Virus record (IMG/VR): IMGVR_UViG_3300042914_003776
Location: 1-64,000 of that record
From: an uncultured virus (IMG/VR IMGVR_UViG_3300042914_003776)
Lineage: Duplodnaviria > Heunggongvirae > Uroviricota > Caudoviricetes
Reading direction: 5' to 3' (one strand)
Length of the DNA: 64,000 nt
Under the pieces are notes generated by a model. It was not told the DNA's origin. It saw nothing but the letters and a program-made list of their open reading frames with translations, and did not search any database. The position numbers and the translations under genes were made by a program. Position 1 is the stretch's first letter; the number at the start of each line of letters is the position of its first letter. Shown here piece after piece: positions 22,830 through 60,106 of the stretch.

Positions 22830-22907
22830 GTATGGCGTGTTGGAATCGAACCAACCTATGAGCGCCTTATAAGAGCGCCGGATGCTACCAGCTTACCTTA
22901 CACCACA
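22830..22907 (-). tRNA. tRNA-Ile(UAU)
   Basis: TGTGGTG/CGCCATA acceptor, GCGCT-CTTATAA-GGCGC anticodon arm, GTTGG-TTCGATT-CCAAC T arm; one extra A before the 3' acceptor strand. Confidence 0.75.
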
Positions 22908-26833: not shown

Positions 26834-28096
26834 TTAAATAAGAATATCTTTAATTAATTTTCCATTATCAACAATTTCGATAGGTCTCGGGCCCGGGGCC
26901 AATAATTCTTTTTCTCCAACAATTCCTAATAAATGATACATCGTGTAAGCTAAATCTTCTGGGCTTGTTGGATTCATATCAGGGTCAGATGCAGTAGGAT
27001 CAGAAGAGCCATAAACCATTCCCTGCTTTATTCCGCCACCAGCAAGTAATACGCTAAAAACTTTTGGCCAATGATCGCGTCCAGCATCTTTGTTTACTTT
27101 TGGCGTTCTACCAAATTCGCTGGAGACCATTATCAATGTTTTACCTAGCATACCACGCTCCTCTAAATCTAATAGTAGAGTCGAAATAGCTTTATCTAAA
27201 GGAGGAAGTTGATTATTCATTCCGCCGGAGATGCCTGTGTGCATATCCCAGCCACCATATGTAACAGTCACCATTCTTACGCCAGCTTCAACTAGTCTTC
27301 TAGCTATTAGAAGTCTTTGACCCGCTTCATTTTTGCCATATCTTTCTTTAGTTTGATCATTTTCTAATTCTAGATTAAAAGCATCTCTTGCTTGAGCAGA
27401 ACTAATTAAATTATAAGCCTGTTCATAAAATTTGTCCATAGCCACGATTTTATCTGAATTGTGTTTAGATGAAAATTCTTTATTTAATAAATCAAGAGCC
27501 TCTCTTTTTTTGTTGAATCTATTAACTTCGTCTTGAGAATTTAAATCTAAAACTTTAAAATCCTTGCTTGCAGGATCGGAATTTAAGCTAAATGGCTTAT
27601 AAGAAGAGCTTAGATATCCATTATTAGCAAACTCATTTGGAGTATTTGGTACACAAACATATGGAGGCAAATTGTTTCTTGAGCCATATTCGTGACTAAT
27701 TACACTTCCGAAACTAGGATATGATAAAGCCGGGCTTGGCTTATACCCAGTAAACATATTATGGGTGCCTCGCTCATGAGCGGCTTCGCCGTGAGTCATT
27801 GACCTAATAAGAGTAAATTTGTCAGAAATATTAGCTAGCTGTGGCAATCGGCTTGAGAGTATATCGCCCGTTTTTGTTTTAATAACATTAACATCGCCCC
27901 TGTATTCTATTGGAGCAAATGGCTTAGGGTCAAAAGATTCTTGATGAGCTATTCCGCCCGGCAAAAAGATATGAATTACGCTTTCGGCTTTAGCTGGAAT
28001 AAAATCATATTTTTGTTGCTCTGATTTTAAATATAGTGCCTGAGCTAGATTAATACCGAAAAAACTACCAATCTGTAGAAAATTTCTTCTATACAT
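26834..28096 (-). CDS. DUF1501 domain protein
   Basis: Tat-like RRNFL, GGIAHQESFDPKP, ARRLVEAGVR, GWDMH, SEFGRTPKVN...GRDHWP. Confidence 0.92.
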   Translation of the reverse strand: MYRRNFLQIGSFFGINLAQALYLKSEQQKYDFIPAKAESVIHIFLPGGIAHQESFDPKPFAPIEYRGDVNVIKTKTGDILSSRLPQLANISDKFTLIRSMTHGEAAHERGTHNMFTGYKPSPALSYPSFGSVISHEYGSRNNLPPYVCVPNTPNEFANNGYLSSSYKPFSLNSDPASKDFKVLDLNSQDEVNRFNKKREALDLLNKEFSSKHNSDKIVAMDKFYEQAYNLISSAQARDAFNLELENDQTKERYGKNEAGQRLLIARRLVEAGVRMVTVTYGGWDMHTGISGGMNNQLPPLDKAISTLLLDLEERGMLGKTLIMVSSEFGRTPKVNKDAGRDHWPKVFSVLLAGGGIKQGMVYGSSDPTASDPDMNPTSPEDLAYTMYHLLGIVGEKELLAPGPRPIEIVDNGKLIKDILI

Positions 28097-28182
28097 AAAA
28101 GTCCTAATTAAAAGAGCTGTCTGCGGCTAATTCGCCCTTAATATCTTGGGCAAAACAAACTAATTATACTATAATAAATACA

Positions 28183-29403
28183 CTAATCAACTAATTCTGT
28201 GATTATTTTGCCACTATTTGCTATTTTCATAGGTCTTCCATCATTGGAAGTAAAATTTGTTTCTAGAGAAATATCAAGCGATTTAAGAACTGTCGCCATT
28301 ATATCTTGGGCAGAATAGGGTTCAGTGGCTACCGATGTTCCATCTTCGTTTGTAGAGCCGATTACTTGTCCGCCCTTAACTCCGCCGCCACCAAGCACTA
28401 CGCTCCAAGCTTTTGCATAGTGATCGCGTCCGGCATCGGTGTTAATGTTTGGAGTACGCCCAAACTCGCCCATCCACAAGATTGTGGTGTCTTGATAAAG
28501 ACCACGTTGATTTAAATCTTCTATTAAAGCACTCATGGCCTGATCCATGATTGGTAGCTTTTCTTCTAGTGTATTAAAAATATCCGCATGATTATCCCAG
28601 CCACCAAAATCTACCTCGATAAAAGGAGTACCGACTTCAACCAGACGGCGGGCCATCAAGCATCCTCGCCCAAAAGAATTATCGCCATATCTCTGTTTAA
28701 TTTTTTCTGGCTCTTTATCTATTTTGAATAGATTCATTTGATCGCTGGCAACAACTTTAACGGCACGGCCTAAAGTCTTTGAATGATCTTGAGGAAGAGA
28801 GCCTCTATTTTCTTTTATAAATCCTTTTTCTATAACCTCCAAAGCCCTTAGTCTCTGGATCATCCTTAATTCATCTACATTAAATTTTAAATCTCTAATA
28901 TTTCCATTTGAACCAACTACAAATGGAGAATAGCTAGCTCCTAAAAATCCCGGGCCAATACTGGCTCCTCCAATAGAAACAAATTGCGGTATTTCTAGTG
29001 CTGGATTATTTAACTGATTAGAAATTACAGAGCCATAACTTGGATGCTCCATAGTTGGAGAAGGTGCATATCCAGTATGTAAATAATATCTGCCCCTTGT
29101 ATGGTCGGCTTCTCTGGTGCTCATGCTTCTAACTATGCTTAGATTATGCATCTGTTTTGATAGAAGGGGCAAATGTTCGCAGATTTGAATGCCATCTGCC
29201 GATGTTGAAATAGGTTTAAACTTTCCTCCAGTCGGAGCATTTGGCTTCAAGTCCCATATGTCGATAGTGCTAGGCCCACCATTCATCCAAAGCAAAATAC
29301 ATGATTTATTTTTTTTCTTTATTTCATCCGCTTTTGCAAAAAGTCCAGAACCAACAAAACCAGAAGCCAAAATTAAATTATTTACAAATTCTCTTCTATT
29401 CAT
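28183..29403 (-). CDS. DUF1501 domain protein
   Basis: NRREF, GGPSTIDIWDLKP, ARRLVEVG, GWDNH, GEFGRTPNIN...GRDHY. Confidence 0.92.
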   Translation of the reverse strand: MNRREFVNNLILASGFVGSGLFAKADEIKKKNKSCILLWMNGGPSTIDIWDLKPNAPTGGKFKPISTSADGIQICEHLPLLSKQMHNLSIVRSMSTREADHTRGRYYLHTGYAPSPTMEHPSYGSVISNQLNNPALEIPQFVSIGGASIGPGFLGASYSPFVVGSNGNIRDLKFNVDELRMIQRLRALEVIEKGFIKENRGSLPQDHSKTLGRAVKVVASDQMNLFKIDKEPEKIKQRYGDNSFGRGCLMARRLVEVGTPFIEVDFGGWDNHADIFNTLEEKLPIMDQAMSALIEDLNQRGLYQDTTILWMGEFGRTPNINTDAGRDHYAKAWSVVLGGGGVKGGQVIGSTNEDGTSVATEPYSAQDIMATVLKSLDISLETNFTSNDGRPMKIANSGKIITELVD

Positions 29404-29875
29404 TTTTATTACCCTTGTTTTTTGTAGCATAACCCTTTTCGACCATAACATTTGATACATCGTCTAAAGAGCCATCTCCATCAACATCTTTATAAATATA
29501 TCCTAGTACTCTAGACATATTAACAGAATTTGAAATATTTCCATCAAAAGGCACTCTTACATGCACTTCATCATTTGGTTTTAATATTTTTTGTAAATAT
29601 TCTTTCGATTCTAATCCTCTGGCTTTTTCTTGCTGGTTTTTTGTTTTTATTTCAGGCGCCCAACAATCTACCATTCTTATATTTGCTCGGATTTTAAATT
29701 CTACTGTTACAGTATCTCCATCATAAACAGAAATTATTTTAGCCGGGGCATCAATAAATGTTTCTGTCTTAGAATAAGCTAATGTAAACCTTGTAGCTAC
29801 TACAAATAGCATAAACATAGCGCAATAACTAGAAATAATATTTAAGATTTGAGCAGCTACAAGTTTATATTTCAT
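29396..29875 (-). CDS. thermonuclease (SNase-like)
   Basis: VYDGDT, IRMVDCWAPE, RVLGYIY, MVEKGYA. Confidence 0.88.
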   Translation of the reverse strand: MKYKLVAAQILNIISSYCAMFMLFVVATRFTLAYSKTETFIDAPAKIISVYDGDTVTVEFKIRANIRMVDCWAPEIKTKNQQEKARGLESKEYLQKILKPNDEVHVRVPFDGNISNSVNMSRVLGYIYKDVDGDGSLDDVSNVMVEKGYATKNKGNKNE

Positions 29876-29877
29876 AT

Positions 29878-30858
29878 TTATTCCTCTTGAAAGATATCCG
29901 AGTTTGCCCGGGTCATTAGGGCTATAATATTTTGTCCGCTAGAAGTTTCCGATATAAAATGCACAGAGCCATCACATCTTAGGCTCATTATACCACCATT
30001 ATGAAAACTGTAAAGCTCACTATCGTTTGTACAATTCATGTTGCACTGTCCTACTATAGTAACAGCACCACTAGAAGAAGTGCCATTTTGTACGCCAATT
30101 TCGTTAGAACCATCTAAACTAAATCCATTGTTAATATCGGCCCAGCCCCATCCATCTCCAACAAAAGGCGTATTAAAAACTAAACCAGATTTTGGATTCT
30201 GTGATATTCTACTGCCTCTTCCATAGAAACTTGGTCTTCCGGAGCCCTCTGCCACAATTACTGTTTGGCTTGTTCCATCTAGAATCTGGCTCATTTTAAC
30301 GCCTTGAGGCCCTCTTGCAAGAGCACCAAAGACTTCTCTGGTATTTATTGATGGAAGCCCATTAGACACAAAGAATGAGTTTCTAACAGCATTCACGGAA
30401 CCATAATCGCTATAACCAAAAACCGGCTGACCATAAGTAATTCCTAAAGCAACATATAGGCTTTGAAAAGGAACTTCTCTGGTCGCTGGTGCTGTTGGGC
30501 ACAAATATGTAGGGATAGACTTAGTTGTAATTGGGGTATTTAAAGAATCAAACCAATTTACGCCATGATAATAATTGTTATATGCAGATGTTTGTTCAAT
30601 AAAAGGAAGAACCATTTTTTGCCAAGATTGCTGAAAAACCGGAGGCGAAACACTAATCCGGCTTGGCGGAAATAGTTTATATGTACTTTCGTAATTCAAT
30701 AAAGCTAATCCAATTTGCTTTAAGTTGTTGGAACATTGCATTCTGCGGGCTGCTTCTCTGGCTGCTTGAACTGCCGGAAGCAATAATCCCACTAAAACGC
30801 CAATAATTGCAATAACAACTAGAAGTTCAATCAATGTAAAACCATTCTTTTTTTTCAT
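29878..30858 (-). CDS. DUF1559 protein with prepilin-type N-terminal cleavage/methylation motif
   Basis: [47 protein letters not shown]...SFHNGG...DGSVHF. Confidence 0.95.
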
Positions 30859-31325: not shown

Positions 31326-31329
31326 GAAG

Positions 31330-31660
31330 TGGAGGTAATGGCATTGAGCCATGTCCAGTATAAAAATCAAAATAAGTATCTACATTGATAGTAACTTGTT
31401 TTTGCACAAATTACAAAGCTACCAGAATTATCTGGGTCAAGTTAATTATAACTATTGATTCCTTATTGTCAAGTAGAATCACACTTTATCCGATTATCGG
31501 AGTCATCACAATTTGGTAAAAAGGTTTGTGCAACCCCCGCTGCTAAGCAGCTAAAGCGAAAGTTTCGCCAGTTATCATATTAATCGATTTTTAAACTAGC
31601 CACTCGATTAACTAGTCAATGCAACCTAAATCTATTTTACCTGTCGATACTTTTACCCCC
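31330..31660 (-). ncRNA. ssrA: tmRNA
   Basis: 5' GGGGGTA...TCGAC, 3' GGAC-T arm-TACCTCCA with G3:U pair; tag frame after ATAACT: GGC GAA ACT TTC GCT TTA GCT GCT TAG (GETFALAA*). Confidence 0.93.
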
Positions 31661-39098: not shown

Positions 39099-39172
39099 TT
39101 TTACCTCAAAAAACAGGGGCCTTTCAGCCCCTATTTAACATCGATGTAACTTTTGTCTACTCCACCAAAAAG

Positions 39173-39244
39173 AGGCCGATGGGGAACTCGAATCCCCTTA
39201 ACTTATTTACGAAATAAGCGTTTTACCATATAAACTAAAAGGCC
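39173..39244 (-). tRNA. tRNA-Thr(CGU)
   Basis: Loop TTCGTAA, T arm GGGGA-TTCGAGT-TCCCC; acceptor mismatches. Confidence 0.75.
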
Positions 39245-39248
39245 AAGT

Positions 39249-39273
39249 TGGAGCGGGCGGAATCGAACCACCT
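39249..39273 (-). pseudogene. tRNA 3' remnant (T arm and acceptor strand only)
   Basis: GGTGG-TTCGATT-CCGCC-CGCTCCA with no 5' half upstream. Confidence 0.6.
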
Positions 39274-39327
39274 ACCACTATTATAACAAGTATCTAGATA
39301 ATTGTCAAGCTGATTATTTATTTTTAG

Positions 39328-39398
39328 TGCGAGTAGTCAGAATCGAACTGACGCATTTTCGTTGGCAACGAAATATACTACCATTATATTATACCCGC
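39328..39398 (-). tRNA. tRNA-Gly(GCC)
   Basis: GCGGGTA/TACTCGC, loop TTGCCAA. Confidence 0.92.
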
Positions 39399-39411
39399 AT
39401 GTTTTGTTAAG

Positions 39412-39484
39412 TCCTCTCGTCCGGCACTGCCCCGGATTCCCCAATTTAAAAGATTGGTGATAATCTAGTTACATCTCCGAGAGG
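39412..39484 (-). tRNA. tRNA-Lys(UUU), atypical T loop
   Basis: CCTCTCG/CGAGAGG, CCAAT-CTTTTAA-ATTGG, T loop GGCAGTG. Confidence 0.8.
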
Positions 39485-39493
39485 TTATTTAAA

Positions 39494-39564
39494 TTATCCC
39501 GCCTAGATTCGAACTAGGGCCGTCATAGTCAAAGTATGAAGTGCTACCTTTACACTACGGGATA
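39494..39564 (-). tRNA. tRNA-Gln(UUG)
   Basis: TATCCCG/CGGGATA, loop CTTTGAC. Confidence 0.92.
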
Positions 39565-39565
39565 A

Positions 39566-39637
39566 TAGTCCCGCAGAGACTTCAACTCTGACAGGCATGG
39601 TAAGAGCATGCTATGCTAGCCGTTACATTACGGAACG
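39566..39637 (-). tRNA. tRNA-Lys(CUU)
   Basis: GCATG-CTCTTAC-CATGC, T loop TTGAAGT, 1:72 mismatch. Confidence 0.8.
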
Positions 39638-39639
39638 AA

Positions 39640-39861
39640 TTAATCACCATCATTAGTTGCCGGATAAAATACCATATTTCTATTTTTACATACTGGGCAT
39701 TTTTCTACAGATTTTTGTAAATATGGCGTAGAACCTTGAATATCGCTCATTTCATATTCTTCGGCCCTAGCTTCTGTTCCACAAATATGACATGTACCAT
39801 ACCATACTCTCTGGGGTAGTCTTTTACCCTTTTTGATGATTTCCATCTCATTATATCTCAA
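39640..39861 (-). CDS. small zinc-ribbon protein
   Basis: CHIC...CPVC. Confidence 0.6.
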   Translation of the reverse strand: MRYNEMEIIKKGKRLPQRVWYGTCHICGTEARAEEYEMSDIQGSTPYLQKSVEKCPVCKNRNMVFYPATNDGD

Positions 39862-39880
39862 TAAAAAAGAAAGTCAAGCT

Positions 39881-40393
39881 CTATTTTATTTTTCTTCTTT
39901 TAATATTATGAGCTTTTTGAGCACATATTTTATTACAATATTTTTTATCTACCCTAACAGAGCACTCGAAATCGTTGTGACAAATTTCGCATTGTTTTAG
40001 ATGTGTTTTAATTTCTACATTTTTAACATTAGAATCTTCTTCAAAATGAAGTTCTCTATGACAATTAGAACATAATAAATCACATTTATCAAGTTCAATT
40101 TTTGTTTTTTCCCAAGACCTAGTTAGTCCTTTTTTACTTAATCCAAACTCTTTATCAGAAGACTCCCTATGATGAAAATCTAATGCGGCAGAACATTTAT
40201 CATAGCCACATTTTTGACACTTTCCGCCTTTATATTCTAAGGCTAATTGTTTTAATTTTAATCTTCTTCGATGAACAGCGTTGGTGCGACATTTTTTACA
40301 TTTTCTTCTTTCTTTAGGAGTTCCAAAATTTTCTAAAGCAAATTCTGTTTCCCCATGTTGCTTACAAGTCCATATTATTGTTTTTTCTGGCAT
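39881..40393 (-). CDS. HNH endonuclease (free-standing, inside tRNA array)
   Basis: GGKCQKCGY...ALDFHH...KCDLLCSNCHRELH; AGGAG RBS before ATG 40393. Confidence 0.9.
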   Translation of the reverse strand: MPEKTIIWTCKQHGETEFALENFGTPKERRKCKKCRTNAVHRRRLKLKQLALEYKGGKCQKCGYDKCSAALDFHHRESSDKEFGLSKKGLTRSWEKTKIELDKCDLLCSNCHRELHFEEDSNVKNVEIKTHLKQCEICHNDFECSVRVDKKYCNKICAQKAHNIKRRKIK

Positions 40394-40459
40394 ATATAAT
40401 CTCCTATACCTATATATACACAAAATGTATAGGTAGTAAGATTATTTTTATTTTACTAG

Positions 40460-40549
40460 CTCCGAAGTCAGGATTCGAACCTGAATACCGTTCGAGACGG
40501 GTTACACAAAATTAACAGTTTTGCCGCTTTCCAATTAGCGTACCTCGGA
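40460..40549 (-). tRNA. tRNA-Asn(GUU) with long variable arm
   Basis: TCCGAGG/CTTCGGA, CAAAA-CTGTTAA-TTTTG, 22-nt variable region containing CCGT-CTCGA-ACGG. Confidence 0.85.
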
Positions 40550-40580
40550 ATGTTTGGCTAACGTTGATCAGCCGATACAA

Positions 40581-40649
40581 TGCCTACAATTGGAATCGAA
40601 CCAATCAATCCAGACTTATGAAATCTAGTTCTGCTCCAACAGCATAGGC
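40581..40649 (-). tRNA. tRNA-Met/Ile2(CAU), shortened D region
   Basis: GCCTATG/TGTAGGC, loop TTCATAA. Confidence 0.75.
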
Positions 40650-40654
40650 GTAAG

Positions 40655-40726
40655 TTGTGGATCATGGTATTGCACCACACTCATTCGCGGCTTATGAGGC
40701 CGGAAGGATCACTTGATCTATCCACA
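40655..40726 (-). tRNA. tRNA-Met(CAU), atypical
   Basis: TGTGGAT/ATCCACA, CGGC-CTCATAA-GCCG, T loop TGCAATA. Confidence 0.75.
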
Positions 40727-40731
40727 ATAAA

Positions 40732-40802
40732 AGCCCCCAGCAAGAATCGGACTTGCTTTTCTAAATTACCAATTTAGTGTTCTACCATTGAACTATAGGG
40801 GC
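40732..40802 (-). tRNA. tRNA-Thr(GGU)
   Basis: GCCCCTA/TGGGGGC, loop TTGGTAA. Confidence 0.9.
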
Positions 40803-40805
40803 AAG

Positions 40806-40876
40806 CATGGGCGGACAGAGTCGAACTGTCGCTTACGATTTTGGAGATCGTTGTGCTACCGTAACACTTCGCCCAT
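40806..40876 (-). tRNA. tRNA-Trp(CCA)
   Basis: ATGGGCG/CGCCCAT, loop CTCCAAA. Confidence 0.92.
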
Positions 40877-40907
40877 GTATTGTATCATTCTTTTACTCAT
40901 TGTCAAG

Positions 40908-40979
40908 TGCGTCTGCCCGGAATCGAACCGAGAACTTAAAGTTGGAAGCTTTTTATTTTACCGTTGAAACTACAGACGC
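40908..40979 (-). tRNA. tRNA-Gly(UCC)
   Basis: GCGTCTG/CAGACGC, loop CTTCCAA. Confidence 0.9.
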
Positions 40980-41138
40980 TTAGGTTTGTCTTTGTAACTT
41001 GCTCTAGCCAGCTTCGCTAGGCCGGATTGATGCCGTTTTCACTGTCGAATATTATATTCCATAGGGGCTCTCTTTTCACTGCCCGAAAGATATATTATTC
41101 ATTTAAGTCACTTTTATTTATCCAGAAAGACAAACAAA

Positions 41139-41210
41139 TGGGCAATAATGGAATCGAACCATTTTCCTCTAATTGTAAGTTAGAAATTTTAGCCATTAAA
41201 CTAATCGCCC
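41139..41210 (-). tRNA. tRNA-Val(UAC)
   Basis: GGGCGAT/ATTGCCC, loop CTTACAA. Confidence 0.9.
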
Positions 41211-41241
41211 TATATAAGTCGCCACTAGGAATGGACGACAA

Positions 41242-41313
41242 TGGATCGCTAGAGAATCGAACTCTACCAGATTGCTTGCAAAGCAGTCTCGCCCCCTTGG
41301 AACATGGCAACCC
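41242..41313 (-). tRNA. tRNA-Ala(UGC)
   Basis: GGGTTGC/GCGATCC with G3:U70, loop TTTGCAA. Confidence 0.88.
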
Positions 41314-41482
41314 TTATTTTGCAGTCTCTCCCGCTGTGTTCCGTTCGGCATCACCCGTTGACCCTCTCTTACAACCCCCATTCGGGAATAATAGTCCTTG
41401 AGGCACTTCATAACAACTTCACGGTCTTTTGCTTAAACTGAATATTTTCAGCATTTACCGATAGCATGTTTCGCATAAGCAG

Positions 41483-41555
41483 TGACGCGCACCGAAATCG
41501 AATCGGTGTAATATGGATTGAAAGTCCATACTGGGAAACCAACACCCTGCGCGCC
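41483..41555 (-). tRNA. tRNA-Glu(UUC)
   Basis: GGCGCGC/GCGCGTC, loop CTTTCAA. Confidence 0.88.
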
Positions 41556-41592
41556 ATATTTTTATTGTAACAGATGATTTTAAGTTGTCAAG

Positions 41593-41612
41593 CGGAAGGT
41601 ACACGATTCGAA
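41593..41612 (-). pseudogene. truncated tRNA 3' end (Ser-like acceptor)
   Basis: TTCGAAT-CGTGT-ACCTTCC-G, cut off at the start of the plus-strand endonuclease cassette. Confidence 0.6.
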
Positions 41613-41658
41613 ATTAATATTTTTGTGTATATTATATTATACCAACAGGAGATATAAT

Positions 41659-42267
41659 ATGATATTTAAATGTACTTTATGCAATAAAGATTTTGAAAGA
41701 AGCAAAAGAAATGCTTATATGAGCATTAAAAAAAATTGCAAGCCGTTTTGTTCAAAAACATGTTTTAACTCTTTTCAAACAACAAAACAACAAGTTTTGT
41801 GTAAAAATTGCAACAAAGCTTTTTATAAATTATTAAATCAAATCAAACAATCAAAAAATCATTTTTGTTCTAGGTCTTGTTCTGTTACTTATAATAATAA
41901 AAATAAGACAAAAGGAAACAGACGATCTAAACTAGAACAATATATTGAATTAAAACTTTCTGAAATATATCCAAATCTTCAAATATTATACAATAATAAA
42001 GAAGCTATAAAATCTGAATTAGATATCTATATACCATCTTTAAAATTAGCTTTTGAATTAAATGGAATTTTTCATTATGAACCAATTTTTGGTGAAGATA
42101 AATTATCTAACATTCAAAATAACGATAATCGCAAATTTCAAGCTTGTTTAGAACAAAATATAGAACTTTGTATTATCGACACTTCTTCACAAAAATATTT
42201 TAAAGAATCTTCTTCGGAAAAATTTTTAAAAATTATATGTGAAATTATCAACAAAAAAAATAATTAA
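41659..42267 (+). CDS. zinc-finger plus PD-(D/E)XK putative homing endonuclease
   Basis: Repeated CxxC...FCSxxC modules, ELDIYIPSLKLAFELNGIFHY; AGGAG RBS; only clear plus-strand gene. Confidence 0.85.
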   Translation: MIFKCTLCNKDFERSKRNAYMSIKKNCKPFCSKTCFNSFQTTKQQVLCKNCNKAFYKLLNQIKQSKNHFCSRSCSVTYNNKNKTKGNRRSKLEQYIELKLSEIYPNLQILYNNKEAIKSELDIYIPSLKLAFELNGIFHYEPIFGEDKLSNIQNNDNRKFQACLEQNIELCIIDTSSQKYFKESSSEKFLKIICEIINKKNN

Positions 42268-42268
42268 G

Positions 42269-42350
42269 CGGAGAGTTGAGATACCGCCCCCCATGCTTTC
42301 GCACCAACAGTTTTCAAGACTGTGTCCACAACTTTGTGAATTAACTCTCC
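42269..42350 (-). tRNA. tRNA-Ser(UGA), atypical T loop
   Basis: GGAGAGT/ACTCTCC, ACAGT-CTTGAAA-ACTGT, variable arm, T loop GGCGGTA. Confidence 0.82.
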
Positions 42351-42411
42351 ATTTGCTACGGACGCCCGAAGACGCCCGTGTTACTCACTGTACACTTGGT
42401 ACATGAGCTAG

Positions 42412-42500
42412 CGGAGAATAATGGAATCAAACCATTACCGGGTTTTAAACCGGACGAATTTAGCAAATTCGCGTAGCAAATCAGTATCTACCTATTCTCC
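42412..42500 (-). tRNA. tRNA-Ser(GCU)
   Basis: GGAGAAT/ATTCTCC, loop TTGCTAA, long variable arm. Confidence 0.88.
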
Positions 42501-42504
42501 AAAG

Positions 42505-42577
42505 CGACTCATAGGGTAATCGAAACCCTGCTTCAAGATCGACAATCTTGCGTCCTGCCCGTCTGGACCAATGAGCC
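42505..42577 (-). tRNA. tRNA-Asp(GUC)
   Basis: GGCTCAT/ATGAGTC, loop TTGTCGA. Confidence 0.9.
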
Positions 42578-42582
42578 AAATA

Positions 42583-42650
42583 AGAGGAAGAAGGGAGTCG
42601 AACCCTTTTAGCTTGTTTTGCAGACAAGCGCCCCACCTTGGGACAACCTC
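42583..42650 (-). tRNA. tRNA-Cys(GCA)
   Basis: Loop CTGCAAA, U73, short D arm, acceptor mismatches. Confidence 0.8.
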
Positions 42651-42653
42651 AAG

Positions 42654-42729
42654 CACCCCACACAGGAATCGAACCCATTCTTACTAGTCCGTAGCTAGTC
42701 GTGCGAAAATTCCACTACACCAGTGAGGC
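42654..42729 (-). tRNA. tRNA-Arg(ACG)
   Basis: GCCTCAC/GTGGGGT, loop CTACGGA. Confidence 0.88.
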
Positions 42730-42903
42730 ATATTCTTTTATTAACTCGGCCAATCTCTCGGCCTCTTCTTTTGTTAAAAGTATTCTAACCTGCTCTTCAT
42801 TATTTGTCAACTGTAAAAGTATTCCATACGAATTTTTATTTACACCAACAAAATGACCAGATTCTAATTTTTTGCTAAACATTTTATAATCCTATATAAA
42901 CAG

Positions 42904-42977
42904 TAGTCCCAGTCGGAGTCGAACCGACAAACACTTCGTCCTAAGCGAAGCCGCTTTTCCAGTTTGCGTACAGGACT
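42904..42977 (-). tRNA. tRNA-Leu(UAG) lacking the long variable arm
   Basis: AGTCCTG/TGGGACT, CTTCG-CTTAGGA-CGAAG, variable loop only TGTTT. Confidence 0.85.
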
Positions 42978-43084
42978 ATTTTTGGCCATGCTTAATGATT
43001 TTTGCTGATGGTCATTATACCTTGCTGACGCATTAATACAAGTCGAACAAAATATTTTTTCGCAGCTTTTTGTCCCAAGCCAAG

Positions 43085-43156
43085 CCGGTATTAATGGTAT
43101 CGCACCACTCTCTTATGCTCTTCAGGCATACGCTAATCTATCTCAGCTAAATACCG
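43085..43156 (-). tRNA. tRNA-Phe(GAA)
   Basis: CGGTATT/AATACCG, loop CTGAAGA, T loop TGCGATA. Confidence 0.82.
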
Positions 43157-43161
43157 ATAAA

Positions 43162-43236
43162 GGTGGAATGGAAAGAATTGAACTTTCGTAAGTTTTGTTC
43201 ACAGCAAAACCCCCAAACCAACATGGGACAGTCCAC
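43162..43236 (-). tRNA. tRNA-His(GUG)
   Basis: Loop CTGTGAA, T arm GAAAG-TTCAATT-CTTTC. Confidence 0.82.
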
Positions 43237-43242
43237 ATAAAA

Positions 43243-43315
43243 TCTCACACGGCAGAATCGAACTGCATCCTCGATACCCCAAATATCGCGTACAAACCAT
43301 TATACGTCATGCGAG
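43243..43315 (-). tRNA. tRNA-Pro(UGG)
   Basis: CTCGCAT/GTGTGAG, loop TTTGGGG. Confidence 0.85.
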
Positions 43316-43352
43316 TTAAAAAATACACAACCAAATTGTAAAAGATCGAAAG

Positions 43353-43425
43353 TAGTGCGTGACAGAGTTGAACTGCCGTCTCTTGTGTATCAGACAAGGA
43401 TACTAAACCGTTGTACTAACGCACT
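43353..43425 (-). tRNA. tRNA-Ile(GAU)
   Basis: AGTGCGT/ACGCACT, loop CTGATAC. Confidence 0.9.
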
Positions 43426-44534: not shown

Positions 44535-44717
44535 TCATTTTTTGCTTACAACCTGACTCCTAATTCGATCTATGGCTTGTATCCAGACTTGGCTCCAGAC
44601 TTGGTCCCCGACTTGGCTCCAGATTTGGCTCCTGACTTGGATCAAGATTTGGTCCCCGACTTGGCTCCTGACTTGGTTCAAGATTTGGTTCCTGACTTGA
44701 TTTTTGACAATTTTCAT
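44535..44717 (-). CDS. QVxx-repeat mini-protein
   Basis: [16 protein letters not shown]...VVSKK. Confidence 0.75.
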
Positions 44718-44920
44718 TTTTCGTCCCAGACTTGCTCGCAGATTTGGTTCCTGACTTGGTTCCAGACTTGGTTCACGACTTGGTATCCGACTTGGCTCCC
44801 GACTTGGTTCCCGACTTGGTCCCAGACTTGGCTCCAGACTTGGTCCCCGACTTGGCTCCAGATTTGGCTCCTGACTTGGATCAAGACTTGGTCCATGATT
44901 TGATTCTTAGTTGTTTTCAT
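44714..44920 (-). CDS. QVxx-repeat mini-protein
   Basis: [12 protein letters not shown]...[10 protein letters not shown]. Confidence 0.75.
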
Positions 44921-45075
44921 TTCTTGCTCACGATTTGGCTCCCGACTTGGCTCCAGACTTGGCTCCTGACTTGGTTCAAGATTTGGTCCCCGACTTGGCT
45001 CCAGACTTGGCTCCAGACTTGGTATCCGACTTGGCTCACGACTTGGGCCCTGACTTGATTTTTGACAATTTTCAT
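44917..45075 (-). CDS. QVxx-repeat mini-protein (52 aa)
   Basis: [20 protein letters not shown]...QIVSKK. Confidence 0.72.
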
Positions 45076-45302
45076 TTTTCGTCCCAGACTTGCTCCCAGA
45101 TTTGGTTCCTGACTTGGTTCCAGACTTGGTTCACGACTTGGTATCCGACTTGGCTCACGACTTGGGCCCTGATTTGATTCCAGACTTGGTTACTGATTTG
45201 GTTCCTGACTTGGCTCACGACTTGGCTCACGACTTGGTTACTGACTTGGTTCCAGACTTGATTCATAGCTCGATGCCTGACTTGACTGCTGACAGCTTTC
45301 AT
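45072..45302 (-). CDS. QVxx-repeat mini-protein
   Basis: [19 protein letters not shown]...[10 protein letters not shown]. Confidence 0.75.
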
Positions 45303-45481
45303 TTTTCGTCCCAGACTTGGCTCCTGACTTGGAACCTGACTTGGCTCCTGACTTGGTCCCAGACTTGGCTCCTGACTTGGTCCCAGACTTGGTTCCCGAC
45401 TTGGTTCCAGACTTGGTTCCCGACTTGGTTCCTGACTTTGCTCAAGGCTTGGCTCCAGACTTGGTAAATAAGTGATTTCAT
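45299..45481 (-). CDS. QVxx-repeat mini-protein
   Basis: [16 protein letters not shown]...[14 protein letters not shown]. Confidence 0.75.
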
Positions 45482-45648
45482 TTTTCGTGCCTGACTTGCT
45501 TCCAGACTTGGTTCCCGACTTGGTTACTGACTTGGTTCAAGAATTGGTTCCCGACTTGGATCATGACTTGGTATCCGACTTGGCTCACGACTTGGGCCCT
45601 GACTTGATTCATAGCTCGATGCCTGACTTGACTGCTGACAGCTTTCAT
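45478..45648 (-). CDS. QVxx-repeat mini-protein (56 aa)
   Basis: [19 protein letters not shown]...[10 protein letters not shown]. Confidence 0.72.
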
Positions 45649-45851
45649 TTTTCGTCCCAGACTTGGCTCCTGACTTGGAACCTGACTTGGCTCCTGACTT
45701 GGTCCCAGACTTGGCTCCTGACTTGGTTCCCGACTTGGTTCCAGACTTGGTTCCTGAGTTGGTTCAAGAATTGGTTCCCGACTTGGATCATGACTTGGTA
45801 TCCGACTTGGCTCACGACTTGGGCCCTGACTTGATTGTTGACAGCTTTCAT
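45645..45851 (-). CDS. QVxx-repeat mini-protein
   Basis: [15 protein letters not shown]...[14 protein letters not shown]. Confidence 0.75.
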
Positions 45852-46054
45852 TTTTCGTCCCAGACTTGGCTCCTGACTTGGAACCTGACTTGGCTCCTGA
45901 CTTGGTCCCAGACTTGGCTCCTGACTTGGAACCTGACTTGGCTCCTGACTTGGTCCCAGACTTGGCTCCTGACTTGGTCCCAGACTTGGTTCCAGACTTG
46001 GTTCCCGACTTGGTTCCAGACTTGGTTCCTGACTTGATTGTTGACAGCTTTCAT
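45848..46054 (-). CDS. QVxx-repeat mini-protein
   Basis: [15 protein letters not shown]...[14 protein letters not shown]. Confidence 0.75.
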
Positions 46055-46233
46055 TTTTCGTCCTTGACTTGCTCCCAGATTTGGTTCCTGACTTGGTTCC
46101 AGACTTGGTTCACGACTTGGTATCCGACTTGGCTCACGACTTGGGCCCTGATTTGATTCCAGACTTGATTCCATAGCTGATCCAAGACTTGACTCTCGAC
46201 TTGGTTCCTGACTTGGTTATTAACTGGTTTCAT
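46051..46233 (-). CDS. QVxx-repeat mini-protein
   Basis: [15 protein letters not shown]...[10 protein letters not shown]. Confidence 0.75.
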
Positions 46234-46400
46234 TTTTCCTCCAAGATTTGGTCCCTGACTTGATCCTTGACATGGTTCCTGACTTGGTTCCTGACTTGGC
46301 TCCAGACTTGGTCCCCGACTTGGTTCCTGACTTGGCTCCAGACTTGACTATTGACTTTGTCCCTGACTTGCTCCCAGACTTGCTTTTTAACTGTCTTCAT
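46230..46400 (-). CDS. QVxx-repeat mini-protein
   Basis: [11 protein letters not shown]...QILEEK. Confidence 0.75.
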
Positions 46401-46952
46401 TTCCCAACTCTTCAATAAACTTCTCGTACTCAAGCCAAAACTGTTCTATCGCCCACTCTTTAGGCCCGGCGTAAACTTTTAGCAGTCTATATGGCACCTT
46501 AGAGAAAACGCTATATCTTGTTAATCCGTCTTCAAATCTTATGCCTATTTTTGCATCATCTCTTATAAAAAACAAGTCGTTTTCAAATATTTTTAACATT
46601 TTCTTCTACATCACTTTTTAGGCAGCGTAGTATTCTAATACTAAAAGGTCTGGTAACAGCAAAGGTTACATCTAATACTTTTACTTTATAATTACCAAGA
46701 TATTTATAATAAATTGTCTTAGTATTGGTTTCTCTCAGAATATCGATAGATTTCATCACATATATCTCTATAAATCTCAAATTTAAACTCGGAATTGTGG
46801 GTAATCCACTTACCAACGAAGCCGAAGGAAGTAAAAATCAAATTGATCGACGAAATCAAATTGATAAAAAACTCATTTGATGTTTTATTCATCTGTCTAG
46901 ATATTCTTTGTGTGACTGGGTTCATTTAAAGCCTGTGTCCTACGCATAAAAC

Positions 46953-48054: not shown

Positions 48055-48155
48055 TGGAAAAGGCTGGATTCGAACCAACATCAGGCCCCGACTTAGGGGC
48101 GAGCCTACCTTTGTCTCTTATTCTGTATATACAGCGTCTTTATCATCACTTTTCC
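48055..48155 (-). ncRNA. tRNA-like RNA with non-canonical core
   Basis: GGAAAAG/CTTTTCC-A acceptor and GTTGG-TTCGAAT-CCAGC T arm; no standard D or anticodon arm. Confidence 0.6.
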
Positions 48156-48157
48156 AG

Positions 48158-48240
48158 TGCAACCAACTGGATTCGAACCAGTATTCAAGTGCGTCCTGCT
48201 TTTGCTCCGCTCTTGCTATTACCAATTATAGGATAGTTGC
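48158..48240 (-). ncRNA. tRNA-like RNA with extended anticodon-position arm
   Basis: GCAACTA/TGGTTGC, D arm CTAT-AATTGGTA-ATAG, T arm ACTGG-TTCGAAT-CCAGT, 30-nt arm CAAGAGCG...CGCACTTG. Confidence 0.7.
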
Positions 48241-48245
48241 ATCAA

Positions 48246-48371
48246 TGGGTCGGGCAGGAATTGCACCTGCTTGCGCTTCGGTCAGTCCGTTGGAGTCGAA
48301 CCAACGCCATTTGGTCTTGCCTTGCGGGAGCCCTAACTGACTCTGCGTGTCACTGTCCACGCCGCCGATCC
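48246..48371 (-). ncRNA. tRNA-like RNA with a nested second acceptor/T-arm module
   Basis: Outer GGATCGG/CCGACCC plus GCAGG-TGCAATT-CCTGC; inner GTCAGT...GTTGG-TTCGACT-CCAAC-GGACTGAC at 48281-48341. Confidence 0.65.
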
Positions 48372-49076
48372 TTATATATTATATACTATTGATCTTTATT
48401 TTCAAGCAAAATACTGTAAAATTCTTCTACCATAATATGTATTCTGTATAACTTTGAGCTTGTGCATTTTTTATTGTTAACTTTATAAGATATAATTCCC
48501 ACATTAATTCCCAAATAGCACCATTATGTGCTTTTAAAAAATAATCAACTTTTATGTTATTTATGTCTTCTATTTTTTCCCTAAATGATATCAAGATGGT
48601 CACTCCAGCCCGAATAAAACCAACAATTAAAGTTTATTTTATCTTCTATATAATCTGACAGACCCCTCTTCTTAGTAAAGATCATGTCGGGCATTAATTT
48701 AAAATGGCTAATTTTTTTCATATTTTAACTACTACAGATAATAACAAAACAGTAATGTGGTATAAAAAATCATTTCTATAATATAGCCCGGGAAATTTAG
48801 GCTTGCCCATGAATGATCTGGGTCTGGATATGTTGTTATAAGGTCACGAACTGATTTCATTTTTTTTGTTTCTTTTTTATTACCCACCGTATCTCAAATA
48901 ACAAATCATCGATCCATTTTATATATAAAGAAAATGTATGCGGTCTGTAATTTCATAGCGAATAAAATTAGGAATCCGTAAATACCAGTCTATATAAGTA
49001 TATGTAAATATGTGCGTTTTGTCAAATATTTTTTCGTTTATTAAATCATAAGTTTTTTGAATTTTTTTTAAAGGCT

Positions 49077-49235
49077 TCATTTTTCTGCTCCGTGTTCATC
49101 CCAGACTTGTCTCACGACTTGGTTACTGACTTGGTTCCAGACTTGGCTTTCGACTTGGCTCCCGACTTGGCTCCTGACTTGGTTCCTGACTTGGCTCCAG
49201 ACTTGCTCCCCGACTTGATTGTTGACAGCTTTCAT
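49077..49235 (-). CDS. QVxx-repeat mini-protein (52 aa)
   Basis: [15 protein letters not shown]...[10 protein letters not shown]. Confidence 0.72.
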
Positions 49236-49438
49236 TTTTCGTTCCAGAATTGGTTCCCGACTTGGATCATGACTTGGTTCAAGACTTGGTTCCTGACTTG
49301 GCTCCAGACTTGGCTCCTGACTTGGTTACTGACTTGGTCCCCGACTTGGTTACTGACTTGGTTCCCGACTTGGTTCCTGACTTGGTTCCTGACTTTGCTC
49401 AAGGCTTGGCTCCAGACTTGGTAAATAAGTGATTTCAT
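49232..49438 (-). CDS. QVxx-repeat mini-protein
   Basis: [16 protein letters not shown]...[14 protein letters not shown]. Confidence 0.75.
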
Positions 49439-49509
49439 TTTTCGTGCCTGACCTGCTTCCAGACTTGGCTCCAGACTTGGTTCCTGACTTGATTGTTGAC
49501 AGCTTTCAT
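49435..49509 (-). CDS. QVxx-repeat mini-protein (24 aa)
   Basis: [24 protein letters not shown]. Confidence 0.65.
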   Translation of the reverse strand: MKAVNNQVRNQVWSQVWKQVRHEK

Positions 49510-49625
49510 TTATCACTCCAGAATTGGTTCCCGACTTGGATCATGACTTGGTTCCTGACTTGGCTCCAGACTTGATTACTGACTTTCCAGACTTGGTTAC
49601 TGACTTGACTGCTAAGAGCTTTCAT
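49506..49625 (-). CDS. QVxx-repeat mini-protein (39 aa)
   Basis: MKALSSQVSNQVWKVSNQV...QFWSDK. Confidence 0.65.
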   Translation of the reverse strand: MKALSSQVSNQVWKVSNQVWSQVRNQVMIQVGNQFWSDK

Positions 49626-49810
49626 TTTTTATTCTTATATTGGTGCAAGACTTGGATATATGCTTCCGTCCAGACTTGGTGCCGAAGTGTGTAGGTTTGA
49701 TTTATATGATTGTACATTTTGCTCCAGATTCGGACACTTATTCGTTCACCAATTTTGTAATTAGTTAATTTTATAATTTTGTACTGTAGTTCAGTTATAA
49801 CATTTTTCAT
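49622..49810 (-). CDS. diverged member of the mini-gene family
   Basis: MKNV start, residual RHQVWTEAYIQV, same ATGA coupling. Confidence 0.55.
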   Translation of the reverse strand: MKNVITELQYKIIKLTNYKIGERISVRIWSKMYNHINQTYTLRHQVWTEAYIQVLHQYKNKK

Positions 49811-50073
49811 TTATTATCCCCATAATATTCTTCTATAAAACCCAAGTTTTCTTCTATAAAACGCAAAATAATATATCCCGGCATATCGTGTGATACATGC
49901 CAACGGGTTTCCCAATAGCTTTTTAGTATTAATTGACGGATTTCTTTAGCTATTTTCATTGTTTAAAATAAGCCTTATTTTACTTATTGGATGACAAATT
50001 TTACGAATTTTTTGAAATATAACAAGATTAATTGACGGGACATATAATTGTATAAGTTTATTTTTTAGAGGTT

Positions 50074-50280
50074 TCATTTTTCGTTCCTGCTTTGTTCCCA
50101 AGCTTGGCTCCAGACTTGGCTCCTGACTTGGCTCCCGACTTGGATCATGACTTGGTTCAAGACTTGGTTCCTGACTTGGCTCCAGACTTGGCTCCTGACT
50201 TGGTCCCCGACTTGGTTACTGACTTGGCTCCCGACTTGGCTCCAGACTTGCTCCCCGACTTGATTGTTGACAGCTTTCAT
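50074..50280 (-). CDS. QVxx-repeat mini-protein
   Basis: [15 protein letters not shown]...[10 protein letters not shown]. Confidence 0.75.
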
Positions 50281-59190: not shown

Positions 59191-59230
59191 TGCTAGTGCT
59201 GGAATCGAACCAACATACAACCATTCTAGC
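59191..59230 (-). ncRNA. tRNA minihelix-like element
   Basis: GCTAG...GTTGG-TTCGATT-CCAGC-ACTAGC-A, no D or anticodon arm. Confidence 0.45.
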
Positions 59231-59924: not shown

Positions 59925-60106
59925 GGGGAATGGTTGGATTCGAACCAACATAAAGGCTTGATGATTGCCCCAAGACTTTTTAGATATTTTCTCTCGCGTC
60001 CATCACTGGGATTCATCACTTCCACATTTCCGACGCGATACCTTTTTTCTAAAAATTCTTGACCGTAGGTTTAATGCTACGTGCTTTGCCGTTAAGCTAC
60101 ATCCCC
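59925..60106 (-). ncRNA. giant tRNA-like RNA (about 180 nt) with a large rod-shaped insert
   Basis: GGGGATG/CATTCCC acceptor, D arm GCTT-AACGGCA-AAGC, T arm GTTGG-TTCGAAT-CCAAC; own promoter at 60120-60147. Confidence 0.75.

Follow-up and report, generated by a model that had tools for sequence, protein, structure and literature searches.

RNA1 of phage T5 (AY543070 30501-30644), annotated in that record as 'tRNA-like stable RNA with unknown functions', keeps the acceptor stem, D arm and T arm of a tRNA, and a long structured arm replaces the anticodon arm. It heads a row of three RNAs that abut one another and do not decode, the others being RNAI and RNAIII, close to tRNA genes of the phage. 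A tRNA-like module within a larger RNA is also described for the bacterial Y RNAs YrlA and YrlB, with D, T and acceptor-like stems, and in one species YrlA is cut internally by RNase P and receives a CCA end (Chen et al. 2014, PMC4201824). GOLLD is a phage non-coding RNA encoded near tRNA clusters, and is reported to be able to hold a tRNA in a linker (bioRxiv 10.1101/2024.12.08.627333), while the allo-tRNAs are irregular, partly untranslated tRNA-like RNAs that occur in polycistrons (Mukai et al., PMC5389517). The 126-nt RNA reported here shares features with each of these. Judged from its sequence it is a non-decoding tRNA-like phage RNA, a kind that is already known; the surprising part is the recurrence and covariation of a nested arrangement, in which one tRNA-like unit sits inside another, among its relatives.

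The element lies on the minus strand of the window, a 64,000-nt stretch with which a virus record of 117,750 bp begins. The window matches a complete-rated IMG/VR contig of 158,520 bp with terminal repeats (G001) at 100% identity across the 8 kb tested. ARAGORN detected 22 tRNAs in the window, every one on the minus strand and the majority within 39172-43425, and neither ARAGORN (default settings) nor Rfam at gathering thresholds gave a call at 48246-48371. Two DUF1501 genes and one DUF1559 prepilin-type gene at 26834-30858 (minus strand), a pairing that we take to be typical of planctomycetes, suggest a planctomycete host. Long runs of short, overlapping ORFs with Q/V/W/S/N-rich repeats flank the locus on either side (44535-46433 and 49077-50280, both minus strand). 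The features of the element, its promoter and the two RNA units that follow it are listed below in the order of transcription, all on the minus strand; the evidence is given in brackets.

48378..48405 (-): sigma-70-type promoter, 11/12 consensus, 16-nt spacer (match and position)
48246..48371 (-): whole element, an anticodon-less tRNA-shaped RNA of a variable-insert family, 126 nt (sequence, fold, family model)
48365..48371 (-): outer acceptor, 5' strand, pairing with 48253-48247 (pair probability 0.88-1.0 in the isolated RNA)
48345..48362 (-): family D arm, with a 4-bp stem and a 10-nt loop lacking the canonical GG (exact 19-mer in 92 viral stretches)
48335..48341 (-): inner stem, 5' strand, at the anticodon-arm position of the outer frame (probability 0.35)
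48313..48332 (-): irregular hairpin with a GNRA-capped tip, at the inner D-arm position (fold)
48288..48306 (-): inner T arm, 6 bp, with a canonical T-loop (sequence, fold)
48281..48287 (-): inner stem, 3' strand, directly abutting the inner T arm (pairs with 48341-48335)
48271..48280 (-): 10-nt linker at the variable-arm position, last base A (an A precedes the T arm in 103/104 family inserts among the matches listed)
48254..48270 (-): outer family T arm, with G at position 55 (sequence)
48246..48253 (-): outer acceptor, 3' strand, and discriminator A (48246) (CCA not encoded)
48158..48240 (-): operon unit 2, tRNA-like; D and T arms canonical, a further arm extended and without a 7-nt anticodon loop (Rfam tRNA 38.3 bits; fold)
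48055..48155 (-): operon unit 3, tRNA-like, with an acceptor and T arm, an expanded D region and no normal anticodon loop (Rfam tRNA 25 bits, below cut-off; fold)

The outer acceptor, D-like arm, outer T arm, second stem and inner T arm named in the original prediction are thus all present, on the minus strand. The second stem, given there as GTCAGT/ACTGAC, was drawn one pair short, and comprises 7 bp including one G-U. The outer acceptor spans seven positions, but an A.C mismatch at pair 3 leaves 6/7 paired. Compensatory variants of the family D arm are present in relatives. An encoded CCA is missing at the 3' end, as it is in almost all of this phage's tRNAs among those listed. Canonical tRNAs carry U8, A14, G18-G19 and U55 at the elbow; the outer frame has C8, no D-loop GG and G55, and the inner unit has a canonical T loop and no canonical D arm. 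A GG in the 48313-48332 hairpin, paired in the nested model, could act as the D-loop GG of the inner unit. The plus strand can be folded into a nested form as well, a reading that was ruled out because both T-loops, the promoter and all of the tRNAs lie on the minus strand.

T5 RNA1 differs from the element in having an ordinary Leu-type D loop, a canonical T loop and no inner T arm, and in a search with the model of the element's family (see below) only the T arm of RNA1 scores, at 8.3 bits. YrlA is described as circularly permuted relative to tRNA and as adjoining a Ro60/TROVE gene (PMC4201824), whereas the element follows the normal order of a tRNA. Identity with a Y RNA was rejected on inspection by eye, which found neither the T-acceptor-D permutation nor the 5' GNCGAAN0-1G motif, and on the absence of any Rfam Y RNA match. 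TROVE and RtcB genes are both lacking in the complete phage genome (G001). GOLLD RNAs are often >800 nt and form nanocages (bioRxiv 10.1101/2024.12.08.627333), whereas the element is a 126-nt tRNA-shaped carrier with a cargo that has no anticodon; no Rfam model for GOLLD or ROOL matched in the window. Allo-tRNAs and tRNA-Sec keep their anticodon arms and are described with 8/4, 9/3 or 8/5 branches (PMC5389517), in contrast to the 7/5 (outer) and 7/6 (inner) branches of the element, where an anticodon arm (5-bp stem, 7-nt loop) is found in neither unit. The tRNA-Sec model (RF01852) gave 17.5 bits against a cut-off of 47, as a partial match to the inner unit only. A tmRNA was rejected on the coding-strand A3.C70 in place of G3.U70, the 74-nt length of the insert and the lack of an ARAGORN call at default settings, and a canonical tRNA (RF00005) on the missing anticodon stem and 7-nt loop and on the elbow residues. 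A candidate permuted (two-piece) tmRNA, with the tag GETFALAA, was flagged elsewhere in the window by ARAGORN at a relaxed threshold (31329-31660, minus strand).

The promoter is assigned by its 11/12 match and its position and not by rarity, such sites numbering 2 in the 800-nt region against 2.7 in shuffles. Counted seven bases from the end of the -10 box, +1 would fall on 48371, where the RNA itself begins; with the predicted start there the RNA would have no leader, and its outer 5' end would not need RNase P. The element heads an operon of three RNAs, with gaps of 5 and 2 nt to units 2 and 3; unit 2 (48240-48158) received no default ARAGORN call. Three of the four contigs compared from run X1 are at least 95% alike. 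No contig of that run covers 48198-48368, and in one (depth 11) position 48163 is joined to 48397 through 42 other letters. A close relative thus appears to be without this unit and most of unit 2, keeping only unit 3, although this is read from one contig and could reflect either gain or loss.

The 19-nt D arm occurs exactly in 92 viral stretches representing 81 distinct contexts; in most of them there follow, in this order, an unrelated insert, a G55 T arm and a strand able to pair back to the 5' end. From two scans that were not selected for an inner T-loop (at least 211 loci; duplicates and parser misfits dropped), 104 distinct inserts in 95 clusters were obtained among the matches listed, ranging from 30 to 254 nt. 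All 7 inner acceptor pairs are kept in 93/104 members among the matches listed, and position 8 is C in 102/104, again among the matches listed. The acceptor reaches at least 8 pairs in 80/104 among the matches listed (loci L001-L092 and L188-L306), giving an 8/5 branch as in bacterial tRNA-Sec. The long stem of tRNA-Sec is described as weakening EF-Tu binding (PMC7609411), and by analogy the long family acceptor may keep these RNAs from EF-Tu. The sequence ACCA follows the acceptor in 13/104 members among the matches listed, compared with 0-2 in control windows. A covariance model made from four other members picks out the element as the best match in the window (37.1 bits, E about 1e-8). Comparison of the loci establishes family membership, the conserved frame, the unrelated inserts and the enrichment of CCA at family 3' ends, and the element almost certainly belongs to a widespread family of anticodon-less, tRNA-shaped phage RNAs with variable inserts. 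The family was not found in Rfam, a search with 20 family loci matching ordinary neighbouring tRNAs only. The literature text searched held no account of the family or of a tRNA nested in a tRNA-like frame, and the D-arm motif was absent from it; the frame may be among the 10,006 viral RNA candidates in the supplement of PMC10690425, or in that of PMC5389517.

The helices of the element are confirmed as real. Chance is a very poor explanation of the inner T arm, since only 4/200,000 shuffles of the 74-nt insert produced a T arm of 5 bp. A 7-bp helix joining the start of the insert to the strand that abuts the T arm was seen in 325/100,000 shuffles, by a test defined post hoc; when any partner position was allowed, the duplex energy of the inner stem gave p = 0.13. 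Helices of 7 bp at the base of the insert are present in 20/95 family inserts among the matches listed, against 21 in shuffles, and the folding energy of the whole RNA is ordinary (z = -0.44). The minimum-energy fold keeps the outer frame but contains neither the inner stem nor the inner T arm. In models that leave out tertiary contacts and processing, the inner stem has a probability of 0.35 and the inner T arm 0.46; a competing 5-bp hairpin at about 48343-48328 (probability 0.61) replaces both, and the nested fold lies 1.5 kcal/mol above the minimum. Applied to the transcript before its three units are separated, the same models give the inner helices probabilities of 0.11-0.15 and the outer acceptor and outer T arm 0.01. 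Of the double-elbow RNA that had been proposed, a tRNA-shaped frame holding a second T arm and an abutting stem is supported, an arrangement that recurs above chance; its nested fold is not the minimum. The original prediction included neither the membership of the frame in a large family, nor the three-RNA operon headed by the element, nor the competing fold.

That recurrence was measured across the family. In the unselected sample, an inner T-loop hairpin of at least 3 bp is found in 4/95 clusters among the matches listed (the element, L026, L104 and L121), or about 4% of family inserts, while the same test on shuffles gave a mean of 0.04 and a maximum of 1 in 1000 shuffles, a null that omits tRNA genes as ready donors of T arms. 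Targeted scans added further cases. The viral scan returned 55 stretches (43 distinct rows). Of these, 8 were family frames that hold an inner T-loop, counting that of the same phage, and the remainder were judged by eye to be coding DNA, tRNA genes lying side by side, or two other frames. The metagenome scan returned 25 stretches (21 distinct) with 10 family frames, an additional scan gave one further nested member (L316), and a GTDB scan for nested forms gave 2 matches, neither within a family frame. The nested total after the targeted scans is 17 rows in 14 clusters, found with patterns that forced 1-2 of the inner T stem pairs. Nesting in unrelated family members, well above chance, is thus supported by the sequences compared. 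Two other loci (L110 and L125) have inner T arms within tRNA-like frames that, by eye, lack the family D arm, and the family model gives them no score at E <= 0.01.

The nested relatives differ from the element in where the inner unit sits and in how complete it is. In most of them 8-13 nt separate the end of the inner unit from the outer T arm, which places the unit at the variable-arm position, whereas in the element it occupies the anticodon-arm position. In five relatives (L154, L157, L165, L179 and L187) the inner tRNA is near-whole and its D arm canonical. Parts that resemble D arms and anticodon arms, and that can be traced to tRNA genes, are found among the inner units of relatives; in L187 the inner unit can be aligned to tRNA-Phe genes of phages (75% over 68 nt, E = 0.04). 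On inspection by eye, the nested relatives whose inner tRNA is near-whole have bulged inner acceptor stems of only 5-6 bp. The duplex energy of the stem beside the inner T arm reached p <= 0.05 in 0/14 cluster representatives (combined p = 0.08); L181, which is not a cluster representative, gave p = 0.003. A more permissive test for an adjacent helix was non-discriminating, with 3/17 rows at p <= 0.05. The family frame L154:253-452(+) has, by eye, a loop of 7 nt resembling that of Ile(GAU) at the anticodon position, and its inner tRNA contains a long insert of its own.

Covariation was found in a sub-group of four loci, which share the following feature.

L157:278-454, L165:181-353, L179:181-353, L187:181-352 (+): AGUA/GAA hairpin and near-whole inner tRNA

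The inner tRNA of these four has no usable anticodon, and the hairpin common to all of them is sarcin-ricin/loop E-like. In their alignment 16/42 pairs show changes on both sides, a value as high as this being reached in 0/500 shuffles, although the structure was drawn from the same four sequences, two of them near-identical, so that the count leans in its favour. Pairs of the hairpin, of the inner T stem and of the inner arm that resembles an anticodon arm are among those changed, and in slid controls of the alignment pairing falls to 32-45%. The inner tRNA of the sub-group lies at the variable-arm position and its insert differs from that of the element. A scan for further AGUA/GAA members yielded 4 matches, one already known and three due to chance. 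Homolog covariation, which the original prediction had put forward as a check, is thus present in the sub-group, while the element's own insert, having no homologue outside the same phage, yields none. Such a homologue was found neither by way of the neighbouring protein, nor by blastn against cultured phages, with a three-part pattern, or by blastn against the loci collected.

The source of the element's insert was also considered. The 17-mer of the inner T arm shares 16/17 bases with phage T arms at 22855 and 59949. An origin from unit 3 or from the phage tRNA-Leu(UAG) was rejected, the likeness being carried by the T arm, and outside the T arm the best resemblance, to unit 3, is not significant (2307/5000 shuffles score as well).

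The interpretation preferred here, and held tentatively, is that the element is a stable, non-decoding RNA in which the inner module stays in place, its second, canonical T-loop making it a two-site ligand or bait for host proteins. The frame would be a chassis, with the acceptor, the D arm and the G55 T arm providing tRNA-like ends and stability. The adjacent promoter would start transcription on G1, the tRNA-processing enzymes of the host would trim the 3' end and add CCA, and the lack of an anticodon loop would keep the RNA out of decoding. The insert, a T arm and its abutting stem, may have been acquired from a tRNA-like gene; left uncut, it would present a canonical T-loop beside the remodelled outer T-loop. 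The targets of such a bait would be proteins that read the elbow or the acceptor end, whether processing, modifying or surveillance proteins, or defence toxins that act there. The original prediction had also offered a decoy for tRNA-targeting defence nucleases. The nuclease AriB is described as recognising the anticodon stem-loop (PMC11464382), which is missing in the element, so that a decoy for anticodon nucleases is weak, and a bait for elbow- or 3'-end-binding proteins fits better.

The insert could instead be a neutral or decaying passenger, a T-arm piece of a neighbouring tRNA-like gene that recombined into a tolerant frame and is now drifting or being lost. We consider this the main rival, though less likely than not, and several observations suit it: the insert is known from one phage only and its unit is absent in a close relative, the nested fold is not favoured, and the acceptor mismatch is rare in a family where, among the matches listed, 93/104 members keep all 7 inner pairs. 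The near-identity of the inner T arm to others in the genome (16/17 bases) would be expected of such a piece, and phage tRNA clusters are an abundant donor pool that alone would lift T arms above the shuffle expectation. Decay is harder to reconcile with a frame whose D and T arms and promoter are intact and with an inner T arm that is perfect and abuts a 7-bp stem (325/100,000). Nor does a passenger account well for nested inserts that covary in another sub-group, and beyond the T arm the insert resembles none of this phage's tRNAs significantly.

An improbable alternative is that the cargo has a job unrelated to tRNA mimicry, in which the inner T-loop serves as a general motif of tertiary folding or represents one of the two states of a switch. 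T-loops occur outside tRNA according to a review, and a stem-plus-T-arm module is found again in the window at 59214, in a long intergenic stretch. The two near-equal folds (1.5 kcal/mol apart), and the ability of the 5' end of the RNA to pair with the inner T-arm strand in a longer transcript, would fit a switch. The inner units of relatives, however, trace to tRNA genes, and there is no sign that both folds are conserved.

Similarly improbable in our view is that the frame is a precursor from which RNase P, by cutting 5' of the inner stem, and a second cut would free an anticodon-less mini-tRNA of about 62 nt. In its favour, the stem-plus-T-arm stack is what RNase P is described as measuring (PMC4919913), a canonical T-loop is present in the inner unit and not in the outer frame, YrlA of M. 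smegmatis is reported to be cut by RNase P at an internal site and to acquire CCA, which is tied to its 7-bp acceptor stem (PMC4201824), and several relatives hold near-whole inner tRNAs. Against it, the stack here is 13 bp (7+6) with no CCA and a C as the base after the stem, the 3' cut would have to be made inside a folded RNA, and the inner stem has a probability of 0.35. Precise excision is also hard to square with how short and bulged the inner acceptor stems are in the nested relatives with near-whole inner tRNAs. The release by RNase P that was originally suggested is therefore unlikely for the element.

Under the tentatively preferred reading, as a stable ligand or bait, the element belongs with the stable anticodon-less RNAs of phage tRNA clusters, and a large, uncatalogued family makes their job testable, as the frame and cargo of its members can be swapped or mutated independently. 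The sub-group L157, L165, L179 and L187 is a better first target than the singleton element. A broader proposal is that phages have built tRNA-in-tRNA RNAs repeatedly, with a remodelled tRNA frame serving as a natural expression scaffold for a second, canonical elbow (in the covarying sub-group a near-whole tRNA and the AGUA/GAA hairpin), either as multivalent decoys against host toxins and surveillance proteins aimed at tRNA or rRNA or as RNAs opened by RNase P, the element being a working example with both elbows formed; this is possible, though on the unlikely side. Engineered tRNA scaffolds exist, and if both elbows form, the element would be their natural counterpart and a candidate for RNA-based counter-defence.

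Three further loci were observed in the course of the comparisons. A TROVE gene is present in 1/11 records with an inner T arm and in 0/50 non-nested records among the matches listed (50 of 77). The sole case among the records searched is a TROVE/Ro60 gene (G002:C1:18021-18635) about 3.5 kb from the nested family RNA L104, in a complete 43-kb phage. Within the window, a long, hairpin-rich intergenic stretch, without an Rfam match at the gathering threshold, runs downstream of a promoter-like site at about 59400-58960 (minus strand), and includes the module at 59214. Close to it is a 182-nt tRNA-Leu(UAA)-like gene (59925-60106, minus strand) that carries a structured insertion of about 100 nt past the anticodon arm and has a promoter-like site of its own.
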